This document shows, piece after piece, positions 807-13,330 of a stretch of DNA of 13,330 bases (the stretch's first letter is position 1; every line of letters starts with the position of its first letter). This DNA is from a virus (taxonomy: Duplodnaviria; Heunggongvirae; Uroviricota; Caudoviricetes). The translations under genes and the position numbers were made by a program. The DNA lies in IMG/VR virus record IMGVR_UViG_2547132278_000017, positions 1-13,330 of that record, one strand, 5' to 3'. The notes below the pieces were generated by a model, which was not told the DNA's origin, searched no databases, and saw only the letters and a list, made by a program, of their open reading frames with translations.

Positions 807-860
807 CCTGTTTACCTCTTTCTCAGGAAGTTTAGTCTCCAGGATTCCCGGGGCGGTTCA

Positions 861-1418
861 GCTCAACCCCATATAGTTGTAACACTTGAGCCAAACCCTT
901 GGGCCGCTTTTTACTTTGATATTAACATTGCTAATACAGGGAACGCACCTGCCTATAATGTTGAGGTTGTGTTTGATCCTCCACTAGTAAATGCGGAGCA
1001 TAGAGAAAAAAGTGAGATTCCGTTTAGTAAGGTAAGCGTGTTAAAAAATGGGCAATCACTTACCAGCAATCTCTGTAAGTATGAACAAATCAAAGATCAA
1101 ATTTATAATATTAATATAAGCTGGGCAAGCAAACCTAAATCAAACGATAGAGAAACAAATGAATATGTGTATGACATGGCGACATTTGAAGGAATAAGTT
1201 ATCTAGGAGCGAGAAGCCCATTGACGCAAATTGCAGAACAAATTAAAGGTATAAGAGAGGATTGGAAACCTATTGCACAAGGAGCTAAAAAAGTAAAAGC
1301 AGACGTATATACTTCAAGCGATAGAAACGAAGAACGCACGTATCTGCAAGAGCAACACGATTTGGCAATAAAAAGGAGAGATGAGAAAAGAGAAAAAAGA
1401 TTAGAGTCTGGTGAATAA
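861..1418 (+). pseudogene. 3' fragment (185 codons) of an unknown AT-rich gene interrupted by the IS629 insertion
   Basis: The reading frame is open from the first base after the IS terminus (861) to the stop at 1418. There is no in-frame ATG with a ribosome-binding site until very late (MATFEG...), so the N-terminal part must lie beyond the IS. The C-terminus is lysine/glutamate-rich. No recognisable motif. Confidence 0.5.
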
Positions 1419-1466
1419 TTTTAAAGGGAGTGGGTAACTAACCCACTCGTAACTATAAACCTGTAA

Positions 1467-2291
1467 TTAATCACTTATTTTTGACAACAGATAATTACTG
1501 AACGCACTGCAAGTGACTAACATAAATTTAGCTTCAGCTAAGGTAGGATTTACATCTTCTTCTGTTAGCGCATGACGTATTCCACCCTGATCACTTGTAT
1601 AACCATAGAGCTGACTAAAAGCGCCTTTCATTGCAGAGTGTATATATCCTTTTTCCTCTATAGCTTTAAGACAAGCCCCCAAGGTTCCTTTATCATTGCC
1701 CGTGATTTTCCTGCATAAAGATTCAATTGCAGAGATAGACTCTTTAATCGAGTTTCTGTAGTCTGGCTGCTCTCTATCCGTCATTAGTTGTAACGCCCTT
1801 TCGAAATGGCTACGCGATGAATCAGTGCCATTATCAACTGCGTTCTGAACACTTTCAATTTCGTTATCATTTGAAATAGGAGTAATACAACCATTTATTA
1901 TGGTATAACCAACGCCATGCTTTTTAAAGATGGAATTGAGATGCTTCGATAGATTAATATATGAATTAGTTCTCTCAATGATGAACTCAATTAAATCATA
2001 TACCAAATACCATGCTTCCCCATATATATAATCTCGGATAGCAGTCAGCAACGTCTTATCACTTTTGTATCCACTTTCATAACGAGGAATATTATCCGCA
2101 GGTTGATTTAGATAATATATCCACACAGACTGCGCACATTTTGTTGCTGTAGCAGTTTGACGATTGTTAGTCCAAAGGAAAAGATATAAGCAATTCCACA
2201 ATGCCATGCGTGTATCAGAATTAAGATCATTCAGCTGGACATGCTCTCTAACGTCAACATGACCATACCTCACAGAAAATGGCTTTATCAT
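1467..2291 (-). CDS. Hypothetical 274-aa protein; possible AbiJ/HEPN-like abortive-infection-type C-terminal domain (tentative)
   Basis: Long ORF in an AT-rich segment with a Shine-Dalgarno-like AGGGGA 4-6 nt before the ATG at 2291. The C-terminal region ...SIKESISAIESLCRKITG...SAMKGAFSQLYGYTSDQGGIRHALTEEDV...AKFMLVTCSAFSNYL resembles, from memory only, HEPN-type domains of AbiJ-like proteins. Not verified by any search. Confidence 0.6.
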   Translation of the reverse strand: MIKPFSVRYGHVDVREHVQLNDLNSDTRMALWNCLYLFLWTNNRQTATATKCAQSVWIYYLNQPADNIPRYESGYKSDKTLLTAIRDYIYGEAWYLVYDLIEFIIERTNSYINLSKHLNSIFKKHGVGYTIINGCITPISNDNEIESVQNAVDNGTDSSRSHFERALQLMTDREQPDYRNSIKESISAIESLCRKITGNDKGTLGACLKAIEEKGYIHSAMKGAFSQLYGYTSDQGGIRHALTEEDVNPTLAEAKFMLVTCSAFSNYLLSKISD

Positions 2292-2825
2292 TCTTCCCCT
2301 GCCTGATTGTTATGTTCGTTTAAATTATGCAGTCTAAGTTTGATACAATCATATATTAAGCAATAGAATCCATAAAGCCCCGTTGGTGGTAAGACAACAA
2401 GCGGAGCCTCTTGCGACTTCATCAGGGTTATGTCAGTTAGTGAGGCTTATCAGGATGACCATGTACCCAAGGGGAGCGAGGCCGAACCGCTGGCAGAGCT
2501 TGCATATGGTCTGCAAGTACCGTGACCACCATAAACCTGTTTATCCCCTGCGGCGTCTCGCGACGGCGACAGAATGGGGGCATCGGGCTAAAATGCGCTG
2601 CACTAAAAGTTTTGGGATTGTTTAGAGACGGTGGCTACGTCATAGCTTTCAAGTTGAGTCAGTACGTGTTTGACGCTTGGAACGACACGCCGCTATGAGT
2701 TAACATCCCAATTACCACTATCAACCACAGCGGCTTTTTCAAGGGACATAACAGAGCATTTCTTACAGGCAAAAGAGACAGATTTAATCGTCTAACTAAC
2801 TGTATTGTAAGGAATTTAGTAACTT

Positions 2826-2848
2826 GGTGCGAAGGCCGGACTCAAACA
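2826..2848 (-). other. attR-like site: degenerate copy of a tRNA 3' end (T-arm/acceptor/CCA) marking the satellite's left boundary
   Basis: Minus-strand sequence TGTTTGAGTCCGGCCTTCGCACC(A) closely matches the 3' end of tRNA-Leu (leuX-type ...GGTTCGAGTCCGGCCTTCGGCACCA) with one substitution and one missing G. P4-type integrases integrate into tRNA 3' ends, and the int gene is at the opposite end in the compatible orientation. Confidence 0.55.
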
Positions 2849-3044
2849 TCAAAATAAGTTAATGATAAAAAACAAATAATAAAACACAACAATGAAATAT
2901 GCCCCCTTTTGTGCCCCCACTGTTTTTCTGACCAATCTATTTTCAGCCCATCAATAAATCGGAAAGTTAAATCATTTTTAATCAGTAAGTTTGGATCCGT
3001 AGCTCGGATCCAAACCAGTGCATCTTTTATCCACATAAAAAATT

Positions 3045-3340
3045 TTTTTTCGAAAGAACTGTTCACACTGTTCACCTTTCTGTTTTCTCCTTTTATTTCA
3101 GAGTGATAGGTGGTGAATAATGGGTGAAGGGTGAACATTCGATTCTTCACCTCCGGCATTCTGCCGATGTGACTCATACCGGTGATTAATCCTCCGCACT
3201 GAAATCACTCAGGAAGAAAAAAGTTTTTTTTGATTTGATTGTTCACACTGTTCACCTTTCGTTTTTCTCTTTTAATTTCAGTGTGATAACGGGTGAATAT
3301 ACGGTGAAGGGTGAACAGTGGATTGTTCACCTTCGGGGGA
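3045..3340. repeat. crr-like cis replication region: two direct repeats of about 115-120 bp (spaced 180 bp) each carrying several TGTTCACC-type iterons
   Basis: ctgttcacactgttcacctttc...tttcag(a/t)gtgata...ggtgaa...ggtgaagggtgaaca...ttcacc occurs at 3059-3160 and again at 3239-3340. The octamer TGTTCACC/GGTGAACA is the type I iteron bound by P4 alpha protein. The position immediately downstream of alpha matches P4 crr. Confidence 0.7.
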
Positions 3341-3381: not shown

Positions 3382-5715
3382 TCAGGCTGTTGTAGGGTCG
3401 TCACATTTTGGCAGCCAGTCGCCGTAGCTTTCCTCTTTCAGCGTCAGGTTGGTCTGTATCCCCTGTTTGGTATGGCGCTTCTCGTAATTCAGCCCGTATT
3501 CCTTCAGCATCACCGGCAGCCCCAGCCCGAACATTTTCAGACTGAGTACATTCCGGTAGCCGTTTGCCTCCATGTAGGCCAGATAGGCGTGATAGAGGTA
3601 TTTACGGTAATTACGCGGGATGATACTGGCGTTCCCCATATACATGCCGCTGGTCTGCGGCAGGGTTTCCAGATAGCCGATAAAATCAAACGTCGGGTCG
3701 GCATCCCGTTTGATGTTCAGCGCCTCGTCTGAGTTCTGCTGGGACTGAAGCAGTGACCGGGCGAGCATCGGGTCGCTGAACTTCTGCATCAGGTGACGCA
3801 CGATGACCGCCAGCTCGCGGGTGATTTTGTCCTTAAGCTGCGGGTCGCGCTCCTGCGGGGCTATCTGTTCCGGGAAGTGAATAATCACCCGCCGGCGTGA
3901 CACGCCGCCGCTGCGGTCGGTGAAGCGCATCGGGTTATTGTTCACGGCCAGAATCACCGCCGGGATGTGCGTGGAGTACGCATCCCGGTATTTCGGGTCA
4001 ACGGACACCGCATCGCCGCCGGTGATGGCCTTGAGTCCGGCTCCGTCGCCGCTCCATTTTTCCTGGTCCGGCAGGCGTATCAGTGAGAAGCCAGTTAACG
4101 CGGCACGTTCACGCGGGGATTCCAGCGTCTCAATGGTGGCCGACGTGGCGTTATCCTCCCCGGCCAGCAGGGTGGCTATTTCGGCCATGATACTTTTGCC
4201 GCTGCCGCCGGGACCGGTCACCTCCAGAAAGAGCTGCCAGTCATAGCGGTTTGCCAGCACCATAAACAGTGCGGCCAGAATCACGTCGCGTTTTTCCGCA
4301 CGGCCACCGGCGGCACGGTCAAGCCAGCGCCAGAACGCGGGGGCGTGGGTTTCCAGCGTTTCCCCTTCCACCGGCGGGGTGAAATCCACATCGCACAGGG
4401 TGCGCATCCAGTGTGACGGACTGTGCGGGTGGAACGTGCCGTTCTGCGTGTCGAGCACGCCGTTACGAAAGCCAATCAGGCGGCGGGAGGGGGCTTCCTG
4501 CTGCGGAATAATCAGCTTCAGGGTGTCCACCACGGAGGCCACCTTCCCGGAGGAGAACGGCGCGCGCAGACGCTGAAACAGCCCGGCCACATCCCGGGCA
4601 AAGTCCTGTGGCGGCAGCACCTTCCAGACACCATTTTCATAGCGGGACAGAAGCTGGCCGTTGGCATCGACCGCGAGCGCCTCGCCGTAATGCTCATAGA
4701 TACGCATGGCCTTTTCGCTGGTACTCATGGCGGAAAACTCCGCTTCGCTCATGGTGTCGAACGGGCTTTCAGCCGGGGGCCGGATGGCATCATAAATGGC
4801 CTTACGGGTGGCTTCCCCGCCGTACTGCGTGAAGGCATCATTCCAGTCACCGAAGACCGGCGGCAGGGCAACAACACCTTCACACGCATCTGCGGCTGCG
4901 GCGGCTTTTTTCTGGCCGTCACCGCTGAGGTCACGGTCAGCAGCAAGGACAATCTGACAGGCCGGATGCTTCTGCCGGGCAAGGCTGGCCAGAGAAAGGA
5001 GATTCACGGAAGAAAGCGCCACCATCACCGTTTCACCGGTCAGGTGATGCACGGTAAGTGCGGTCGCGTATCCCTCCGCTATCCACAGACGTTTTCCGGC
5101 CTGATTCTGTCCTTCAAGGATGTGACAGGTGCCCCTGACCTGCCCGCCTTTCAGGGTGCGCTTACGGCCGTCAGCACTGATTAACTGAAGGTTAACCAGT
5201 TCGCCGCTGTCGTCATACAGTGGCACCACAAGGTCACCGGCGCGCCAGCTCACGCCACCGGCTCTGTGTGTGCCGGTCAGCATCCGGCATTCCCGGCCGG
5301 GAAAGCCCTTGCGGGTCAGGTAGGCGTTACCGGTTCCGGGACGGGTTTTCGCCATCAGGGTTTGTGCCAGTGCGGCGGCGTTCTTCCGGGCAGCGTCTGT
5401 TTCAGCACCGGCGGCAGCCGTCACTGCCGGGTCAGCCGGGGGCAGGCTGCCGGTCACGGCAGCCACCTTTGCGGCCGCATCGGACGGGGAAACACCAAAC
5501 ACCTTTTCAACCAGTTTCAGGCCGTCACCGGCACCGCACTGATTGCAGTACCAGGTGCCGCGCCCCTCCCTGTCATCAAAACGGAAGCGGTCACTCCCGC
5601 CACAGACCGGACAGGGCTGATGACGGTTCTTCAGCACCTGAATCCCCAGCGCCGGGAGAATACGCGGCCAGTGGCCGAGTGCATGGCTGACGGTGGCGGT
5701 TACGTTCATTTTCAT
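3382..5715 (-). CDS. alpha: P4-type alpha protein: bifunctional DNA primase / SF3 helicase / origin-binding protein (777 aa)
   Basis: N-terminal zinc-binding motif CPVCGG...YCNQCG, Walker A GPGGSGKS in the helicase region, AAGGAGA ribosome-binding site 8 nt before the ATG. The length of 777 aa equals P4 alpha. Iterons recognised by alpha are present at crr and ori. Confidence 0.95.
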   Translation of the reverse strand: MKMNVTATVSHALGHWPRILPALGIQVLKNRHQPCPVCGGSDRFRFDDREGRGTWYCNQCGAGDGLKLVEKVFGVSPSDAAAKVAAVTGSLPPADPAVTAAAGAETDAARKNAAALAQTLMAKTRPGTGNAYLTRKGFPGRECRMLTGTHRAGGVSWRAGDLVVPLYDDSGELVNLQLISADGRKRTLKGGQVRGTCHILEGQNQAGKRLWIAEGYATALTVHHLTGETVMVALSSVNLLSLASLARQKHPACQIVLAADRDLSGDGQKKAAAAADACEGVVALPPVFGDWNDAFTQYGGEATRKAIYDAIRPPAESPFDTMSEAEFSAMSTSEKAMRIYEHYGEALAVDANGQLLSRYENGVWKVLPPQDFARDVAGLFQRLRAPFSSGKVASVVDTLKLIIPQQEAPSRRLIGFRNGVLDTQNGTFHPHSPSHWMRTLCDVDFTPPVEGETLETHAPAFWRWLDRAAGGRAEKRDVILAALFMVLANRYDWQLFLEVTGPGGSGKSIMAEIATLLAGEDNATSATIETLESPRERAALTGFSLIRLPDQEKWSGDGAGLKAITGGDAVSVDPKYRDAYSTHIPAVILAVNNNPMRFTDRSGGVSRRRVIIHFPEQIAPQERDPQLKDKITRELAVIVRHLMQKFSDPMLARSLLQSQQNSDEALNIKRDADPTFDFIGYLETLPQTSGMYMGNASIIPRNYRKYLYHAYLAYMEANGYRNVLSLKMFGLGLPVMLKEYGLNYEKRHTKQGIQTNLTLKEESYGDWLPKCDDPTTA

Positions 5716-8255: not shown

Positions 8256-8327
8256 TCTGCAATGCGTCGTGTTGTTGTCCGGTGTACGTCACAATTTTCT
8301 CAACCTGAAGTGACGAGGAGCCGGAAA

Positions 8328-9062
8328 ATGTCTGACAACACCATCCCTGAATATCTGCAACCCGCGCTGGCACAACTGGAAAAGGCCAGAGCCGCCCACC
8401 TTGAGAACGCCCGCCTGATGGATGAGACCGTCACGGCCATTGAACGGGCAGAGCAGGAAAAAAATGCGCTGGCGCAGGCCGACGGAAACGACGCTGACGA
8501 CTGGCGCACGGCCTTTCGTGCAGCCGGTGGTGTCCTGAGCGACGAGCTGAAACAGCGCCACATTGAGCGCGTGGCACGCCGGGAGCTGGTACAGGAATAT
8601 GACAATCTGGCCGTGGTGCTGAATTTCGAACGTGAACGCCTGAAAGGGGCGTGTGACAGCACGGCCACCGCCTACCGGAAGGCACATCATCACCTGCTGA
8701 GTCTGTATGCAGAGCATGAGCTGGAACACGCCCTGAATGAAACCTGTGAGGCGCTTGTCCGGGCAATGCATCTGAGCATTCTGGTACAGGAAAATCCGCT
8801 CGCCAACACCACCGGGCATCAGGGCTACGTCGCACCCGATAAAGCTGTCATGCAGCAGGTGAAATCATCGCTGGAACAGAAAATAAAACAGATGCAAATC
8901 AGCCTCACCGGCGAGCCGGTTCTCCGGCTGACCGGACTGTCAGCGGCAACACTCCCACACATGGATTATGAGGTGGCAGGCACACCGGCACAGCGCAAGG
9001 TGTGGCAGGACAAAATAGACCAGCAGGGAGCAGTGCTTAAGGCCAGAGGACTGCTGTCATGA
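8328..9062 (+). CDS. sid: Sid, external scaffold / capsid size determination protein (244 aa)
   Basis: Start MSDNTIPEY with GAGGAG 7 nt upstream. 244 aa equals P4 Sid. Helical, Ala/Glu/Leu-rich composition. First gene of the rightward late operon, stop overlapping the delta start (ATGA). Confidence 0.9.
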   Translation: MSDNTIPEYLQPALAQLEKARAAHLENARLMDETVTAIERAEQEKNALAQADGNDADDWRTAFRAAGGVLSDELKQRHIERVARRELVQEYDNLAVVLNFERERLKGACDSTATAYRKAHHHLLSLYAEHELEHALNETCEALVRAMHLSILVQENPLANTTGHQGYVAPDKAVMQQVKSSLEQKIKQMQISLTGEPVLRLTGLSAATLPHMDYEVAGTPAQRKVWQDKIDQQGAVLKARGLLS

Positions 9063-9559
9063 TTTACTGCCCGTCGTGTGGACATGTTGCTCACACCCGT
9101 CGCGCACATTTCATGGACGATGGCACCAAGATAATGATTGCACAGTGCCGGAATATTTATTGCTCTGCGACATTTGAAGCGAGTGAAAGCTTTTTCTCTG
9201 ACTGTAAAGATTCAGGAATGGAATACATTTCAGGCAAACAGAGATACCGCGATTCACTGACGTCAGCCTCCGGTAGCATGAAACGCCCGAAAAGAATGCT
9301 TGTTACCGGATATTGTTGTCGGAGATGTAAAGGCCTTGCACTGTCAAGAACATCGCGGCGTCTGTCTCAGGAAGTCACCGAGCGTTTTTATGTGTGCACG
9401 GATCCGGGCTGTGGTCTGGTGTTTAAAACGCTTCAGACCATCAACCGTTTCATTGTCCGCCCGGTCACGCCGGACGAACTGGCAGAACGCCTGCATGAAA
9501 AACAGGAACTGCCGCCAGTACGCTTAAAAACACAATCATATTCGCTGCGTCTGGAATGA
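9059..9559 (+). CDS. delta: Delta, late transcription activator with two tandem Ogr-type zinc fingers (166 aa)
   Basis: Two Cys4 modules (CPSCG...C...YC and CRRCKG...C...C). 166 aa equals P4 Delta. Confidence 0.9.
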   Translation: MIYCPSCGHVAHTRRAHFMDDGTKIMIAQCRNIYCSATFEASESFFSDCKDSGMEYISGKQRYRDSLTSASGSMKRPKRMLVTGYCCRRCKGLALSRTSRRLSQEVTERFYVCTDPGCGLVFKTLQTINRFIVRPVTPDELAERLHEKQELPPVRLKTQSYSLRLE

Positions 9560-9632: not shown

Positions 9633-10205
9633 ATGGAAAGCACAGCCTTACAGCAGGCCTTTGACACCTGTCAGAATAACAAAGCAGCATGGCTGCAACG
9701 CAAAAATGAGCTGGCAGCGGCCGAACAGGAATATCTGCGGCTTCTGTCAGGAGAAGGCAGAAATGTCAGCCGCCTGGACGAATTACGCAATATTATCGAA
9801 GTCAGAAAATGGCAGGTGAATCAGGCCGCCGGTCGTTATATTCGTTCGCATGAAGCCGTTCAGCACATCAGCATCCGCGACCGGCTGAATGATTTTATGC
9901 AGCAGCACGGCACAGTACTGGCGGCCGCACTGGCACCGGAGCTGATGGGCTACAGTGAGCTGACGGCCATTGCCCGAAACTGTGCCATACAGCGTGCCAC
10001 AGATGCCCTGCGTGAAGCCCTTCTGTCCTGGCTTGCGAAGGGTGAAAAAATTAATTATTCCGCACAGGATAGCGACATTTTAACGACCATCGGATTCAGG
10101 CCTGACGTGGCTTCGGTGGATGACAGCCGTGAAAAATTCACCCCTGCGCAGAACATGATTTTTTCGCGTAAAAGTGCGCAACTGGCATCACGTCAGTCAG
10201 TGTAA
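9633..10205 (+). CDS. psu: Psu, polarity suppression / capsid decoration protein (190 aa)
   Basis: 190 aa equals P4 Psu. Last gene of the late operon, followed by a terminator-like hairpin and the cos site. Confidence 0.9.
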   Translation: MESTALQQAFDTCQNNKAAWLQRKNELAAAEQEYLRLLSGEGRNVSRLDELRNIIEVRKWQVNQAAGRYIRSHEAVQHISIRDRLNDFMQQHGTVLAAALAPELMGYSELTAIARNCAIQRATDALREALLSWLAKGEKINYSAQDSDILTTIGFRPDVASVDDSREKFTPAQNMIFSRKSAQLASRQSV

Positions 10206-10241
10206 AATTCCCCGAAAATCCGCCCGTTTTTACTGAAAAAA

Positions 10242-10270
10242 GCCATGCATCGATAAGGTGCATGGCTTTG
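10242..10270 (+). terminator. Candidate terminator after psu
   Basis: Hairpin GCCATGCA / TGCATGGC (10242-10266) followed by TTTG...TTTT. The U-tract is interrupted, so confidence is modest. Confidence 0.4.
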
Positions 10271-10369
10271 CATGCGTTTTCCTGCCTCATTTTCTGCAAA
10301 CCGCGCCATTCCCGGCGCGGTCTGAGCGTGTCAGTGCAACTGCATTAAAACCGCCCCGCAAAGCGGGCG

Positions 10370-10388
10370 GGCGAGGCGGGGAAAGCAC
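10370..10388. other. cos site: 19-nt cohesive-end sequence GGCGAGGCGGGGAAAGCAC of P2/P4-type phages
   Basis: Exact match to the cohesive-end sequence as I recall it, embedded in a GC-rich dyad (ccgccccgcaaagcgggcgg) between psu and the cargo operon, as in P4. Confidence 0.8.
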
Positions 10389-10633
10389 TGCGCGCCAATA
10401 GCAATGATGCACATTTATTTTCGAACCCTGAGTACATCATAGATGTATGCAGATAAACGATTATGGATCAGTGGCAAATGCATAGAGTAGGTTTGATGCT
10501 CTTACGAGGCATGCAGGTGAACAATACCAACACATAATATATTGAACCTACCCAAAAAAATGAGTAGGCATACTTGTTAAAAGTATATTTCTGATCAATG
10601 ATATAAAAATAAGCACTTTAGGCGAAAGAGAAC

Positions 10634-11575
10634 ATGAAGTTAAATTATTTTACTTACACAATAACCGACAATAGAAATCAAAAAGTTTATTTTGATAACA
10701 TTTCAGATATTATCAAAAATTTTTGTTTGCATAGAAAAAAATCTCTTTTTGAGAAAAACAAAGGGTTAAAAAGACTGTACCTAGCCATGCCCACCTCATT
10801 TGATGGCATATACTATTTGACCACGCCAGCAATTACTACAGCATTTAAAGCTGTAGATAGAGCAACTGGTGTAGTAAATGATTTGGCTTCTGTACTTGGT
10901 AAAGATAGTCTAGAGAAAGTTACTTACTTTTTTATTGACCCTAAACATTCAATAATCGGAGTAACCGAGGGTAAAGGTAATGCTGACATTGATGATTTGC
11001 AATTCTTCATTAACGAAATAATTAATCAAGATTTTCAATCACATATTTATACCTTCGAGCTTTGCACATTAAAAATAGAAATCAAATCTACATCGGCTAC
11101 AAAATTCAAACTCATCACTGAAGCACGAGTGAAGTTAAATAATGATTCTGTTGGGGATGTAATAAATGGATTGTTTGGCAAGGCCCCATCAGACAATATG
11201 GAAGTGCAAATTATCGTAAAAAGAAAAAATAGAAAAGAGAATGTGAAAGATTATATACAACCATTACTCTCAAGTTTATCTTCATCTGAAGATAAAGAGT
11301 ATGCAGAAATTTATTTCAGAGCCAAGGCAGATGAATTTCAATCAAATGTAAAAGAGTTTATTTTAGATAAGAATCAGAATATTTTTGATATAATAAACCC
11401 TCATCTCAAAGTAAAGATTGAAGATCAAATACTTGAAAAAAGATACAAAAACCAAGTTGTGATAAGTGAATTGAGTACATACGCACAAAATTTTACTGGA
11501 CGCATACATTCAGGTATTATTGATCCAGTGTGGAATGATCTAAAAACAGAAAGTTACCACAAAGCAAAAAGTTGA
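10634..11575 (+). CDS. Cargo protein A: 313-aa soluble protein of unknown function, AT-rich, candidate sensor or enzymatic component of a two-gene defence system
   Basis: Uninterrupted 313-codon ORF in an AT-rich island (roughly 25-30% GC by eye against about 55-60% for the backbone). No P-loop, HxH or other motif I can recognise. Its stop at 11573-11575 abuts the ribosome-binding site and start of the next gene. Confidence 0.8.
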   Translation: MKLNYFTYTITDNRNQKVYFDNISDIIKNFCLHRKKSLFEKNKGLKRLYLAMPTSFDGIYYLTTPAITTAFKAVDRATGVVNDLASVLGKDSLEKVTYFFIDPKHSIIGVTEGKGNADIDDLQFFINEIINQDFQSHIYTFELCTLKIEIKSTSATKFKLITEARVKLNNDSVGDVINGLFGKAPSDNMEVQIIVKRKNRKENVKDYIQPLLSSLSSSEDKEYAEIYFRAKADEFQSNVKEFILDKNQNIFDIINPHLKVKIEDQILEKRYKNQVVISELSTYAQNFTGRIHSGIIDPVWNDLKTESYHKAKS

Positions 11576-11583
11576 GGATGACA

Positions 11584-12039
11584 ATGCTTACTAACCAAGC
11601 AATAGTAAAAATTAATATAGCCACATGGGGTGTAAGCATTCTTACTGCTGTTATTTTTACTCTCATTGCGGTGTTTTGTGAAAACCAATACATAGAGATA
11701 GAACCTGAAGGTATAATTGGCATCGCTACACTATTAGGTACTTTTAGTTTCACAATGACAGGATTCATTGCTGCAATTGGTGCTTATATCATATCAGTGT
11801 CTGATAAAACTTCTTTTCTAAAGTGGCGACAGCAAGGATATATAAATATCTTCTACCATCTATATGGGCAGAGCATTGTTTTTTTATTGGTCACATTTTT
11901 ATTATGCATGGTGGCTATCATAATGCCATTTAATGTTGCATTGACAATTTTGAAATGTGGTTTATACATTCTCATCCTTAATATTATTCACATCATATTA
12001 ATAACTGTAATTACACTCGGTCAAATGCAGAAAAAATAA
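11584..12039 (+). CDS. Cargo protein B: 151-aa integral membrane protein with four predicted transmembrane helices, candidate membrane effector
   Basis: ATG at 11584 preceded by GAGGA with a 5-nt spacer (the tracked ORF starts at an unlikely TTG at 11572). Hydrophobic stretches at about residues 12-31, 44-72, 97-116 and 120-145, with a basic C-terminus (QMQKK). Translationally coupled to cargo A. Confidence 0.75.
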   Translation: MLTNQAIVKINIATWGVSILTAVIFTLIAVFCENQYIEIEPEGIIGIATLLGTFSFTMTGFIAAIGAYIISVSDKTSFLKWRQQGYINIFYHLYGQSIVFLLVTFLLCMVAIIMPFNVALTILKCGLYILILNIIHIILITVITLGQMQKK

Positions 12040-12061
12040 GTTAGCTTTTGACCGGTATTTC

Positions 12062-13330
12062 TTACTTTTTAACTTTAAGCATATTTGCAAACTCATATGG
12101 AGTGACTTGAGAATGCTTACTTATATCTAAATAATCCGCCCACCATTGAACCATAAGACGCCGCTCATCTAGATGTTCAGAAGTATGAATATAAGCTGCA
12201 CGAACATTATTGCGCTCTGAATGGCTCAGTTGGCGTTCTATAGCATCATCACTCCATAATCCTGACTCACCCAACGCACCACGTGCCATCGTCCTAAACC
12301 CATGCCCGCAGACTTCGGTTTTTGTGTCATATCCCATCGCACGCAATGCGCTATTCACTGTGTTTTCACTCATAACCTTAGTGGCGTCATGATCCCCCGG
12401 GAAAAGCACCTCTTTATCACCACTAATCTGCTTTAACTGGTCTAACAAATTCATCGCCTGACGACTCAGCGGAACGATATGCTCCTCTTTCATCTTCATA
12501 CCACGATACGAATAACGCACTCCCTTAATTTCTTTTCGTTTTGCAGGTATGCGCCATAGAGATTTATCGAAGTCGAATTCATCCCAACGCGCAAAACGCA
12601 ACTCACTGGAACGCACAAAAGTTAGTAAGGAAAGCTCAACCGCGATCCGTGTCATTACACGGCCACGATATGCAGCAAGACGTGCAAGAAACTCAGGGAA
12701 CCGGCTAGAGGGTAAAGCTGGGTAATGTCGCGCTTTGGTTGTCGATAGAGCACCAGCCATATCACTGGCTGGATTTGAGTCGATGTAATCGTTCTGTACT
12801 GCATAACGCATGATAGCCGTGACACGCTGCTGAAGTCGCTGCGCGACGTCATGCTTACCACTTGCATCAACTTTTTTAATCGGGGCTAACAGGTGGCTAG
12901 TCTTGAGCTGACGAATGTCGGACGAACCAATGTGAGGGAAGATATAAAGCTCAAGATAGCGAAGAACGCGCGAGCGATGGTCTTCACTCCAGCGTTTGTT
13001 ACTGGCGTGCCATTCACGAGCAATGGTTTCGAATGTATATGCCCCCGAATTCTCGGCCTGAGCTTCTTTCTGTTCGGCTTTTGGGTCAATGCCCTGCACT
13101 AGCAGTTTTTTAGCTTCATCGCGCTTTGCTCTTGCCTGAGCAAGCGTCACAGTAGGCCAAACACCAAAAGCGAGGCGATCCTCTTTTTTGTCTGAGGGGC
13201 GTCTGTATTTCATGCGCCAGTATTTTGACCCCTTAGGCGAAATCTCGAGATACAAACCGCCGCCGTCGGCCATTTTGTAGGTTTTTTCTTTTGGCTTTGC
13301 GGTCTCGACCTGTCTGGCTGTGAGCTTCAT
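12062..13330 (-). CDS. int: P4-type tyrosine integrase (422 aa); start codon at the window edge
   Basis: N-terminal arm-type domain (MKLTARQVETAKPKEKTYKMADGGGLYLEISPKGSKYWRMKYR...), C-terminal catalytic residues (HGFRTMARG, ...VRAAYIHT). The ATG occupies 13328-13330, so the true start could lie further upstream outside the window. Convergent with the cargo operon, separated by 22 bp. Confidence 0.88.
   Translation of the reverse strand: MKLTARQVETAKPKEKTYKMADGGGLYLEISPKGSKYWRMKYRRPSDKKEDRLAFGVWPTVTLAQARAKRDEAKKLLVQGIDPKAEQKEAQAENSGAYTFETIAREWHASNKRWSEDHRSRVLRYLELYIFPHIGSSDIRQLKTSHLLAPIKKVDASGKHDVAQRLQQRVTAIMRYAVQNDYIDSNPASDMAGALSTTKARHYPALPSSRFPEFLARLAAYRGRVMTRIAVELSLLTFVRSSELRFARWDEFDFDKSLWRIPAKRKEIKGVRYSYRGMKMKEEHIVPLSRQAMNLLDQLKQISGDKEVLFPGDHDATKVMSENTVNSALRAMGYDTKTEVCGHGFRTMARGALGESGLWSDDAIERQLSHSERNNVRAAYIHTSEHLDERRLMVQWWADYLDISKHSQVTPYEFANMLKVKK

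Follow-up and report, generated by a model that had tools for sequence, protein, structure and literature searches.

A divergent two-gene module, probably of the RexAB type, in the psu/cos-int hotspot of a P4-like satellite

The two genes between the cos site and the integrase gene of a P4-like satellite from Escherichia coli very likely form a divergent RexAB-type module, carried as cargo of the psu/cos-int defence hotspot and acting by Rex-type abortive infection. What the analysis shows directly is that both proteins belong to these families, that the first has a predicted RexA fold, that the pair is conserved and that it sits in the hotspot. The pair is already known, having been catalogued, cloned and challenged with phages, and it is not a new family. 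The analysed stretch, called the window here, is the 13,330-nucleotide IMG/VR record IMGVR_UViG_2547132278_000017; the upstream and downstream cargo genes are called A and B, respectively, and the coordinates of all features are collected in Table 1.

Table 1. Features of the satellite window, with positions counted from its first nucleotide
Feature	Position	Strand	Basis or remark
ORF in the region downstream of alpha	969-1418	+	
ORF in the region downstream of alpha	1467-2291	-	
ORF in the region downstream of alpha	2842-3177	-	
alpha primase-helicase	3382-5715	-	
sid	8262-9062		
delta	9059-9559		
psu (polarity suppression protein), left conserved border of the hotspot	9633-10205	+	Pfam PF07455 Psu, E 3.9e-88
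19-nt cos core of P2/P4-type elements, GGCGAGGCGGGGAAAGCAC	10370-10388		read directly in the sequence
Variable AT-rich cargo region between cos and int	10396-12061	+	composition profile, GC 0.319
rexA-like gene A, 313 aa, predicted soluble two-domain protein, WP_000775192.1	10634-11575	+	
GAGGA ribosome-binding site of gene B, overlapping the gene A stop codon	11574-11578	+	sequence read
rexB-like gene B, 151 aa, predicted four-helix inner-membrane protein, WP_000957222.1	11584-12039	+	
P4-type tyrosine integrase, right conserved border of the hotspot	12062-13330	-	Pfam Arm-DNA-bind_3, Phage_int_M, Phage_integrase

The cargo slot and its genes

The element carries alpha, sid, delta and psu, and its variable genes lie between psu/cos and int. 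The 19-nt core GGCGAGGCGGGGAAAGCAC at positions 10370-10388 is the cohesive-end sequence. A constant stretch, ...GGGCGGGCGAGGCGGGGAAAGCACTGCGCGC, is also found 5′ of the variable cargo in the inserts that were cloned by Rousset et al. The integrase gene and gene B are convergent with 22 bp between them, and in the source genome the satellite adjoins a tRNA-Leu gene by ahr/yjgR, with the tRNA-Leu located beyond int. The earlier note had described the two genes as strongly AT-rich and tightly coupled cargo of this hotspot, and each of these points agrees with the window: there are exactly two ORFs between cos and int, both on the same strand; the cargo has a GC content of 0.31-0.32 (A 0.307, B 0.322) versus 0.47-0.61 for the backbone (psu 0.525, int 0.475, alpha 0.611); and the gene A stop codon (11573-11575), the GAGGA (11574-11578) and the ATG of gene B (11584) follow each other closely.

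In particular, the junction reads AAAAGT TGA GGATGACA ATG, which leaves an 8-bp gap between the genes, and the rexA-like gene lies adjacent to and upstream of the rexB-like gene. An in-frame TTG at position 11572 overlaps the gene A stop codon, and translation from this TTG would lengthen protein B by 4 residues to 155 aa. RefSeq records also differ in the start of gene B, with one record placing it four codons upstream (a 462-bp CDS) and another using the ATG (456 bp). The ATG at 11584 is favoured as the start of B because of the conserved N-terminus MLTN and the spacing from GAGGA. The probability of a 313-codon open frame occurring by chance at the local composition is about 3e-12, and the longest open frame in 2000 shuffles had 180 codons, compared with 317 observed; further, the conservation of the pair across genera argues that both A and B are real genes. 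We infer that they are co-transcribed. A promoter scan of the + strand from cos to the start of A did not find a consensus sigma-70 site, and the same scan did not find a terminator after B; the published clone of the pair (pFR86, see below) relied on the native upstream region of A.

The earlier note had also judged that the satellite looks intact and would be mobilisable. It is apparently intact, but this assumption is weakened by insertion sequences at the alpha side. An IS3-family transposase gene with a programmed frameshift occupies positions 1-806 of the window on the minus strand and abuts the cargo downstream of alpha; its orfA spans 480-806 and its orfB runs past the start of the window. 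In the source genome, an IS66/ISEc47 element and another IS3 fragment follow beyond it. As a result of these insertions, the alpha-side end of the satellite and its attR may be disrupted, so that the element may not be intact or mobilisable.

Between the IS3 element and alpha, a second AT-rich cargo region (window 807-3300, GC 0.39) looks like a second variable slot that is rich in defence or toxin-antitoxin genes. For example, its 274-aa protein (1467-2291, minus strand) matches the PADLOC candidate PDC-S32 (E 5.6e-104) and Pfam AbiJ_NTD4, and its neighbours are a phrog_11802 protein and a 111-aa ORF without matches. The same position downstream of alpha holds a second integrase in E. coli GmM062, a 231-aa protein with ScoMcrA-like HNH genes in Klebsiella satellites, and TacA/acetyltransferase and ParE/Phd pairs in Pectobacterium satellites.

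Relationship of the two proteins to RexA and RexB

As judged by profile comparison and a predicted structure, protein A is a RexA-family protein. It matches Pfam PF15969 (RexA) with 43.1 bits, compared with a gathering cutoff of 25 (E 5e-11), and the alignment pairs residues 1-232 of A with positions 1-229 of the 235-position model, which Pfam describes as "intracellular sensor of lambda phage, Abi component". The 24 database homologues of A, all named "hypothetical", range in identity from 96% down to 36% and originate from Salmonella, Lelliottia, Klebsiella, Serratia, Pectobacterium, marine Alteromonadales and metagenomes; PF15969 is present in all of them except the N-terminally short P0005 and P0011. 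Moreover, a profile built from 18 members of the A family (alignment A1) aligned to lambda RexA over about 180 columns in hhalign (82.7% probability, E 9.5e-6). In this register, lambda residues R219 and K221 correspond to R229 and K231 of A, which are conserved in 17 and 18 of the 18 A1 members, respectively. The R219/K221 double mutant of lambda RexA loses both DNA binding and T4rII exclusion.

An AlphaFold2 model of A, built on A1, has a pLDDT of 72.3 and a pTM of 0.70, with low confidence at residues 151-245, the region of the dimerisation domain. The only significant Foldseek match to this model was lambda RexA (8TWQ; E 3.3e-10, probability 1.0), the next match having an E of 0.29, and the predicted model accordingly shows the two-domain RexA fold of 8TWQ, distantly similar to RdgC. 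Searching the PDB by sequence, whether with A or with its family profile, did not return a match, so that Pfam, hhalign and the fold comparison were needed to establish the link to RexA. A PADLOC scan of A matched no family at E <= 1, its RexA model included, which means that the system would not be called RexAB by this tool. Scans of A and B with NCBIfam and PHROGs yielded nothing useful, and a tblastn search with A did not find a match in 50,697 phage records. Readings of A as a nucleotidyltransferase, a nuclease or a P-loop protein were rejected because such families were absent from every scan.

Seven small Acinetobacter plasmids encode more distant homologues, with 24-25% identity to A at about 90% coverage, which are annotated as hypothetical. 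On the one plasmid that was inspected (Acinetobacter pittii plasmid p2_100004; homologue at L011, 3001-3939), an IS256-like element lies directly 3′ of the gene, where a rexB-like gene would be expected.

Protein B has four hydrophobic segments (approximately 10-32, 44-72, 89-113 and 120-146), and its AlphaFold2 model contains four long helices (4-31, 41-72, 86-113 and 116-149; pLDDT 81.6). With 151 aa and four predicted helices, it resembles the RexB norm, which is an inner-membrane protein of about 145 aa with four transmembrane (TM) segments. The PADLOC RexB model (PDLC02340) matches B with an E of 5.5e-6 and also matches 5 of 11 close homologues of B (best E 7e-9). Pfam assigned no family to B at E <= 1, leaving PF15968 (RexB) without a direct match; a BLASTP comparison of B with lambda RexB was insignificant (E 0.13), as were the hhalign comparisons of a shallow B-family profile (A2) with lambda RexB and with the lambda RexB family (A3). 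These insignificant alignments nonetheless keep one register, defined by TM2, a K-x-R/W-x-x-G-Y loop and a histidine in TM4.

The significant match to lambda RexB came only with a deeper alignment. An exhaustive hmmsearch of 1.84 billion representatives, seeded with A2, returned 51 proteins at E <= 0.001, and 39 of these make up alignment A4, of which 14 individually match PF15968. A comparison of A4 with the lambda RexB family (A3) in hhalign gave a probability of 98.05% and an E of 1.4e-13 across 132 columns, pairing residues 18-151 of B with residues 12-143 of RexB. We accept B as a distant RexB by transitive homology through these profiles, with the caveat that A4 includes members that are themselves PF15968-like. 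A Foldseek search with the B model against viral predicted structures (BFVD) gave no significant match, with lambda RexB outside the best 50; this result carries no weight in either direction because four-helix membrane bundles are poorly discriminated. Separately, the B-family profile (positions 18-63) matches 11 separate stretches of a 1,561-aa protein (P0067; E 1.2e-19). This may reflect a membrane protein of repetitive build, or hydrophobic repeats may have produced a compositional artefact.

The earlier note had proposed that a soluble protein followed by a four-helix membrane protein is an architecture of the abortive-infection type, which fits the four hydrophobic segments, the four predicted helices and the homology to RexA and RexB; its statement that the 313-aa protein could not be placed in a family, or was new, gives way to the above-cutoff Pfam match and the 8TWQ fold. 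It is scarcely credible that the locus is a novel defence system made from a new, unclassifiable protein family: the missing NCBIfam, PHROGs and sequence-only PDB matches and the "hypothetical" label of both genes in nearly all RefSeq records (see below) are what such a family would show, but this reading is refuted by the Pfam RexA match and the fold match, by the profile homology of B to RexB, and by prior publication of the pair as RexAB-like.

A small multi-pass membrane protein with a soluble partner is also the architecture of a toxin-antitoxin or addiction module, or of a holin-like cassette, that would stabilise the satellite with the membrane protein as toxin and the soluble protein as regulator; moreover, RexB-type proteins are growth-inhibitory when RexA is over-expressed (PMC12894663). 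We nevertheless consider this highly improbable, because homology puts the two proteins in the RexA and RexB families, known toxin-antitoxin or holin families had no match in Pfam, NCBIfam or PADLOC, and E. coli MG1655 maintained the native-promoter clone for plaque assays.

Distribution, prior testing and proposed mechanism of the pair

The A-then-B order is kept in the same slot of P4-like satellites from Pectobacterium and Klebsiella, and also in a metagenomic P4-like element with integrase, primase and Ogr/Delta genes. In the Klebsiella loci (L005-L007), the rexB-like ORF at 10939-11406 (155 aa from a TTG, or MLTN... from the ATG) is missing from the gene calls, leaving an apparent 489-bp gap. 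Overall, the satellite-borne clade occurs in P4-like elements of Escherichia, Salmonella, Klebsiella, Serratia, Pectobacterium and Lelliottia. Recurrence of the pair in the same slot, a point raised in the earlier note, is thus seen in the Klebsiella and Pectobacterium satellites, but a pair in Colwellia asteriadis (L003, 10001-11460) lies outside any satellite. This pair (RexA-like protein 39% identical; RexB-like protein of 159 aa, 44% identical) stands by itself, flanked by a TonB-dependent receptor gene and lysS/prfB, with no integrase or phage gene within 10 kb, indicating that the module is not strictly confined to satellites.

Within E. coli, the full locus is present in 20 of 5,426 complete genomes, including a 100% DNA match in E. 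coli TW10722. Both genes are called hypothetical in 19 of these 20 RefSeq records, and one recent record names WP_000775192.1 a "RexA family antiphage protein". As the PADLOC RexA and Pfam RexB models miss the pair, automated defence finders probably under-count this clade; where standard pipelines fail, annotation models could benefit from the intermediate sequences that connect B with RexB.

Working from 5,251 E. coli loci, Rousset et al. (2022, Cell Host Microbe 30:740, PMC9122126) defined the psu-int hotspot; they listed P4-hotspot system 22, "RexA | RexB", with 69 occurrences (Table S1B), and the TW10722 pair, WP_000775192 and WP_000957222, is present in their Table S1A. Their "RexAB-like" plasmid pFR86 carries the pair, cloned from Escherichia marmotae E1118 together with its native upstream region. 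The first protein of pFR86 is 100% identical to A and the second differs from B at residue 40 only (E40 here, K there), and the first 399 bases of the insert align to window positions 10117-10515 with 13 mismatches. The pair is therefore not uncharacterised, contrary to the earlier note, since it was published as system 22 and pFR86 (PMC9122126, Tables S1B and S2B). Searched for in the literature, the protein accessions turned up in supplementary tables only and in no paper text, and a 2026 preprint on P2/P4 hotspots does not mention Rex.

The phage challenge envisaged in the earlier note (a native-promoter clone, a phage panel and efficiency of plating) had also largely been carried out by Rousset et al., and it revealed no robust or reproducible protection. 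In particular, pFR86 is listed under "additional tested systems" (Table S2B) and is absent from Table S2A, the list of the seven P4 systems with "robust and reproducible resistance" (PMC9122126). The panel in MG1655 consisted of lambda, T4, P1, 186cIts, CLB_P2, LF82_P8, AL505_P2 and T7, and the panel in E. coli C consisted of P2 and four P2-like phages, against which only the TIR-NLR system protected; these were wild-type phages, with T4rII mutants absent. The preprint of the same study reported moderate protection against P1vir by a distant RexAB analogue of the hotspot, either pFR86 or the unrelated "RexA + 4TM" clone pFR81, and this claim was dropped in the final paper (PMC9122126).

The negative panel bears on a further alternative, in which the pair is RexAB-related and has its main role outside defence, in the life cycle of the satellite or its helper or in host physiology. 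Lambda offers precedents for such a role, in that its RexA biases the CI/Cro switch and its RexB keeps ClpXP/ClpAP from degrading lambda O and antitoxins (PMC11077077). However, the pair occupies a slot where most of the tested cargo is defensive, no cI/cro-type switch adjoins it, and the Colwellia pair stands alone between housekeeping genes; further, lambda Rex is nearly free of phenotype against wild-type phages, so that a negative panel is expected from a true Rex system. A mainly non-defensive role is thus rather unlikely, and the homology evidence, together with the genomic slot, makes it and the two alternatives considered above less likely than a RexAB-type defence module.

How such a RexAB-type module would act can be proposed by analogy with lambda RexAB and with RexABpp of Pseudomonas putida, from which dimerisation, DNA binding, an interaction of A with B, membrane damage and any anti-phage phenotype are likewise inferred. 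The cytoplasmic RexA-like protein A, which is probably dimeric, with a clamp-like fold for DNA binding that is related to RdgC, would serve as both sensor and activator upon an infection cue. It would then activate the effector, the RexB-like four-helix inner-membrane protein B, which would collapse the potential or the integrity of the membrane; the infected cell would stop growing and the infection would abort. The weak published phenotype is compatible with a Rex mechanism, because lambda Rex spares wild-type T4 and the panel contained no rII mutants. It is possible, though doubtful, that the satellite RexAB clade has a range of triggers or targets that the panel missed, or that it acts on the helper-satellite relationship instead of in classical defence; candidates for missed targets would be rII-type mutants, T-even or T5-like phages, and phages that compete with the helper. 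Either case would explain a widely conserved module without a robust phenotype.

For 70 years it has been asked how Rex systems sense infection. If a sensitive phage is found, a compact, repressor-independent, satellite-borne RexAB clade could be a cleaner experimental system for studying Rex. As a discovery, the locus carries little weight, because the identical pair has been catalogued as RexAB-like, cloned and challenged with phages; with the exact pair tested and no robust phenotype obtained, its biology is known in kind and unproven for this clade.

Comparison with known Rex systems

The closest known relative is system 22 as cloned in pFR86, which shares the psu-cos-cargo-int slot and the upstream region and differs in its host strain (TW10722 here) and in one residue of B.

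Lambda shares the gene order, with rexB 15 bp downstream of rexA and a similarly short gap here. Lambda RexA and its homologues homodimerise and bind DNA non-specifically, and lambda RexB is a four-TM inner-membrane protein; the two proteins interact, together exclude T4 rII mutants and, when co-expressed, cause energetic defects (PMC11077077), whereas wild-type T4 is not excluded. The identity between lambda RexA and A is about 14-20%, A extends about 34 aa further at its C-terminus, and there is no conserved glycine in the A family at the position aligned to the lambda hinge residue G140. B has four predicted TM helices like lambda RexB but lacks direct recognition by Pfam RexB. Moreover, lambda rex lies downstream of cI under PRM, whereas the pair here lies in a strongly AT-rich satellite hotspot and, unlike lambda rex, adjoins no cI-type repressor gene of a prophage immunity region.

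RexABpp of P. putida (PP_5643/PP_5644) is comparable to the pair here, in that it combines a remote RexA homologue, recognisable by profile or structure only, with a four-TM partner; the likeness is drawn from its published description. Rosendahl et al. (2026, PMC12894663) reported that RexABpp binds DNA and permeabilises the membrane in a RexB-dependent manner, and that over-expression of its RexA makes cells stop growing, take up dye and leak cytoplasmic enzymes, again depending on RexB. It differs in its host and in its context, a prophage near a CI-like repressor, and homology to lambda RexB, which B shows through profiles, is not detectable for its RexB.

The Rex-like gp30/gp31 system of mycobacteriophage Sbash, located in an actinobacteriophage prophage, has a RexA homologue that dimerises and binds DNA (PMC11077077), and among the structural neighbours of B in BFVD a 165-aa Sbash protein ranks second, without statistical significance.
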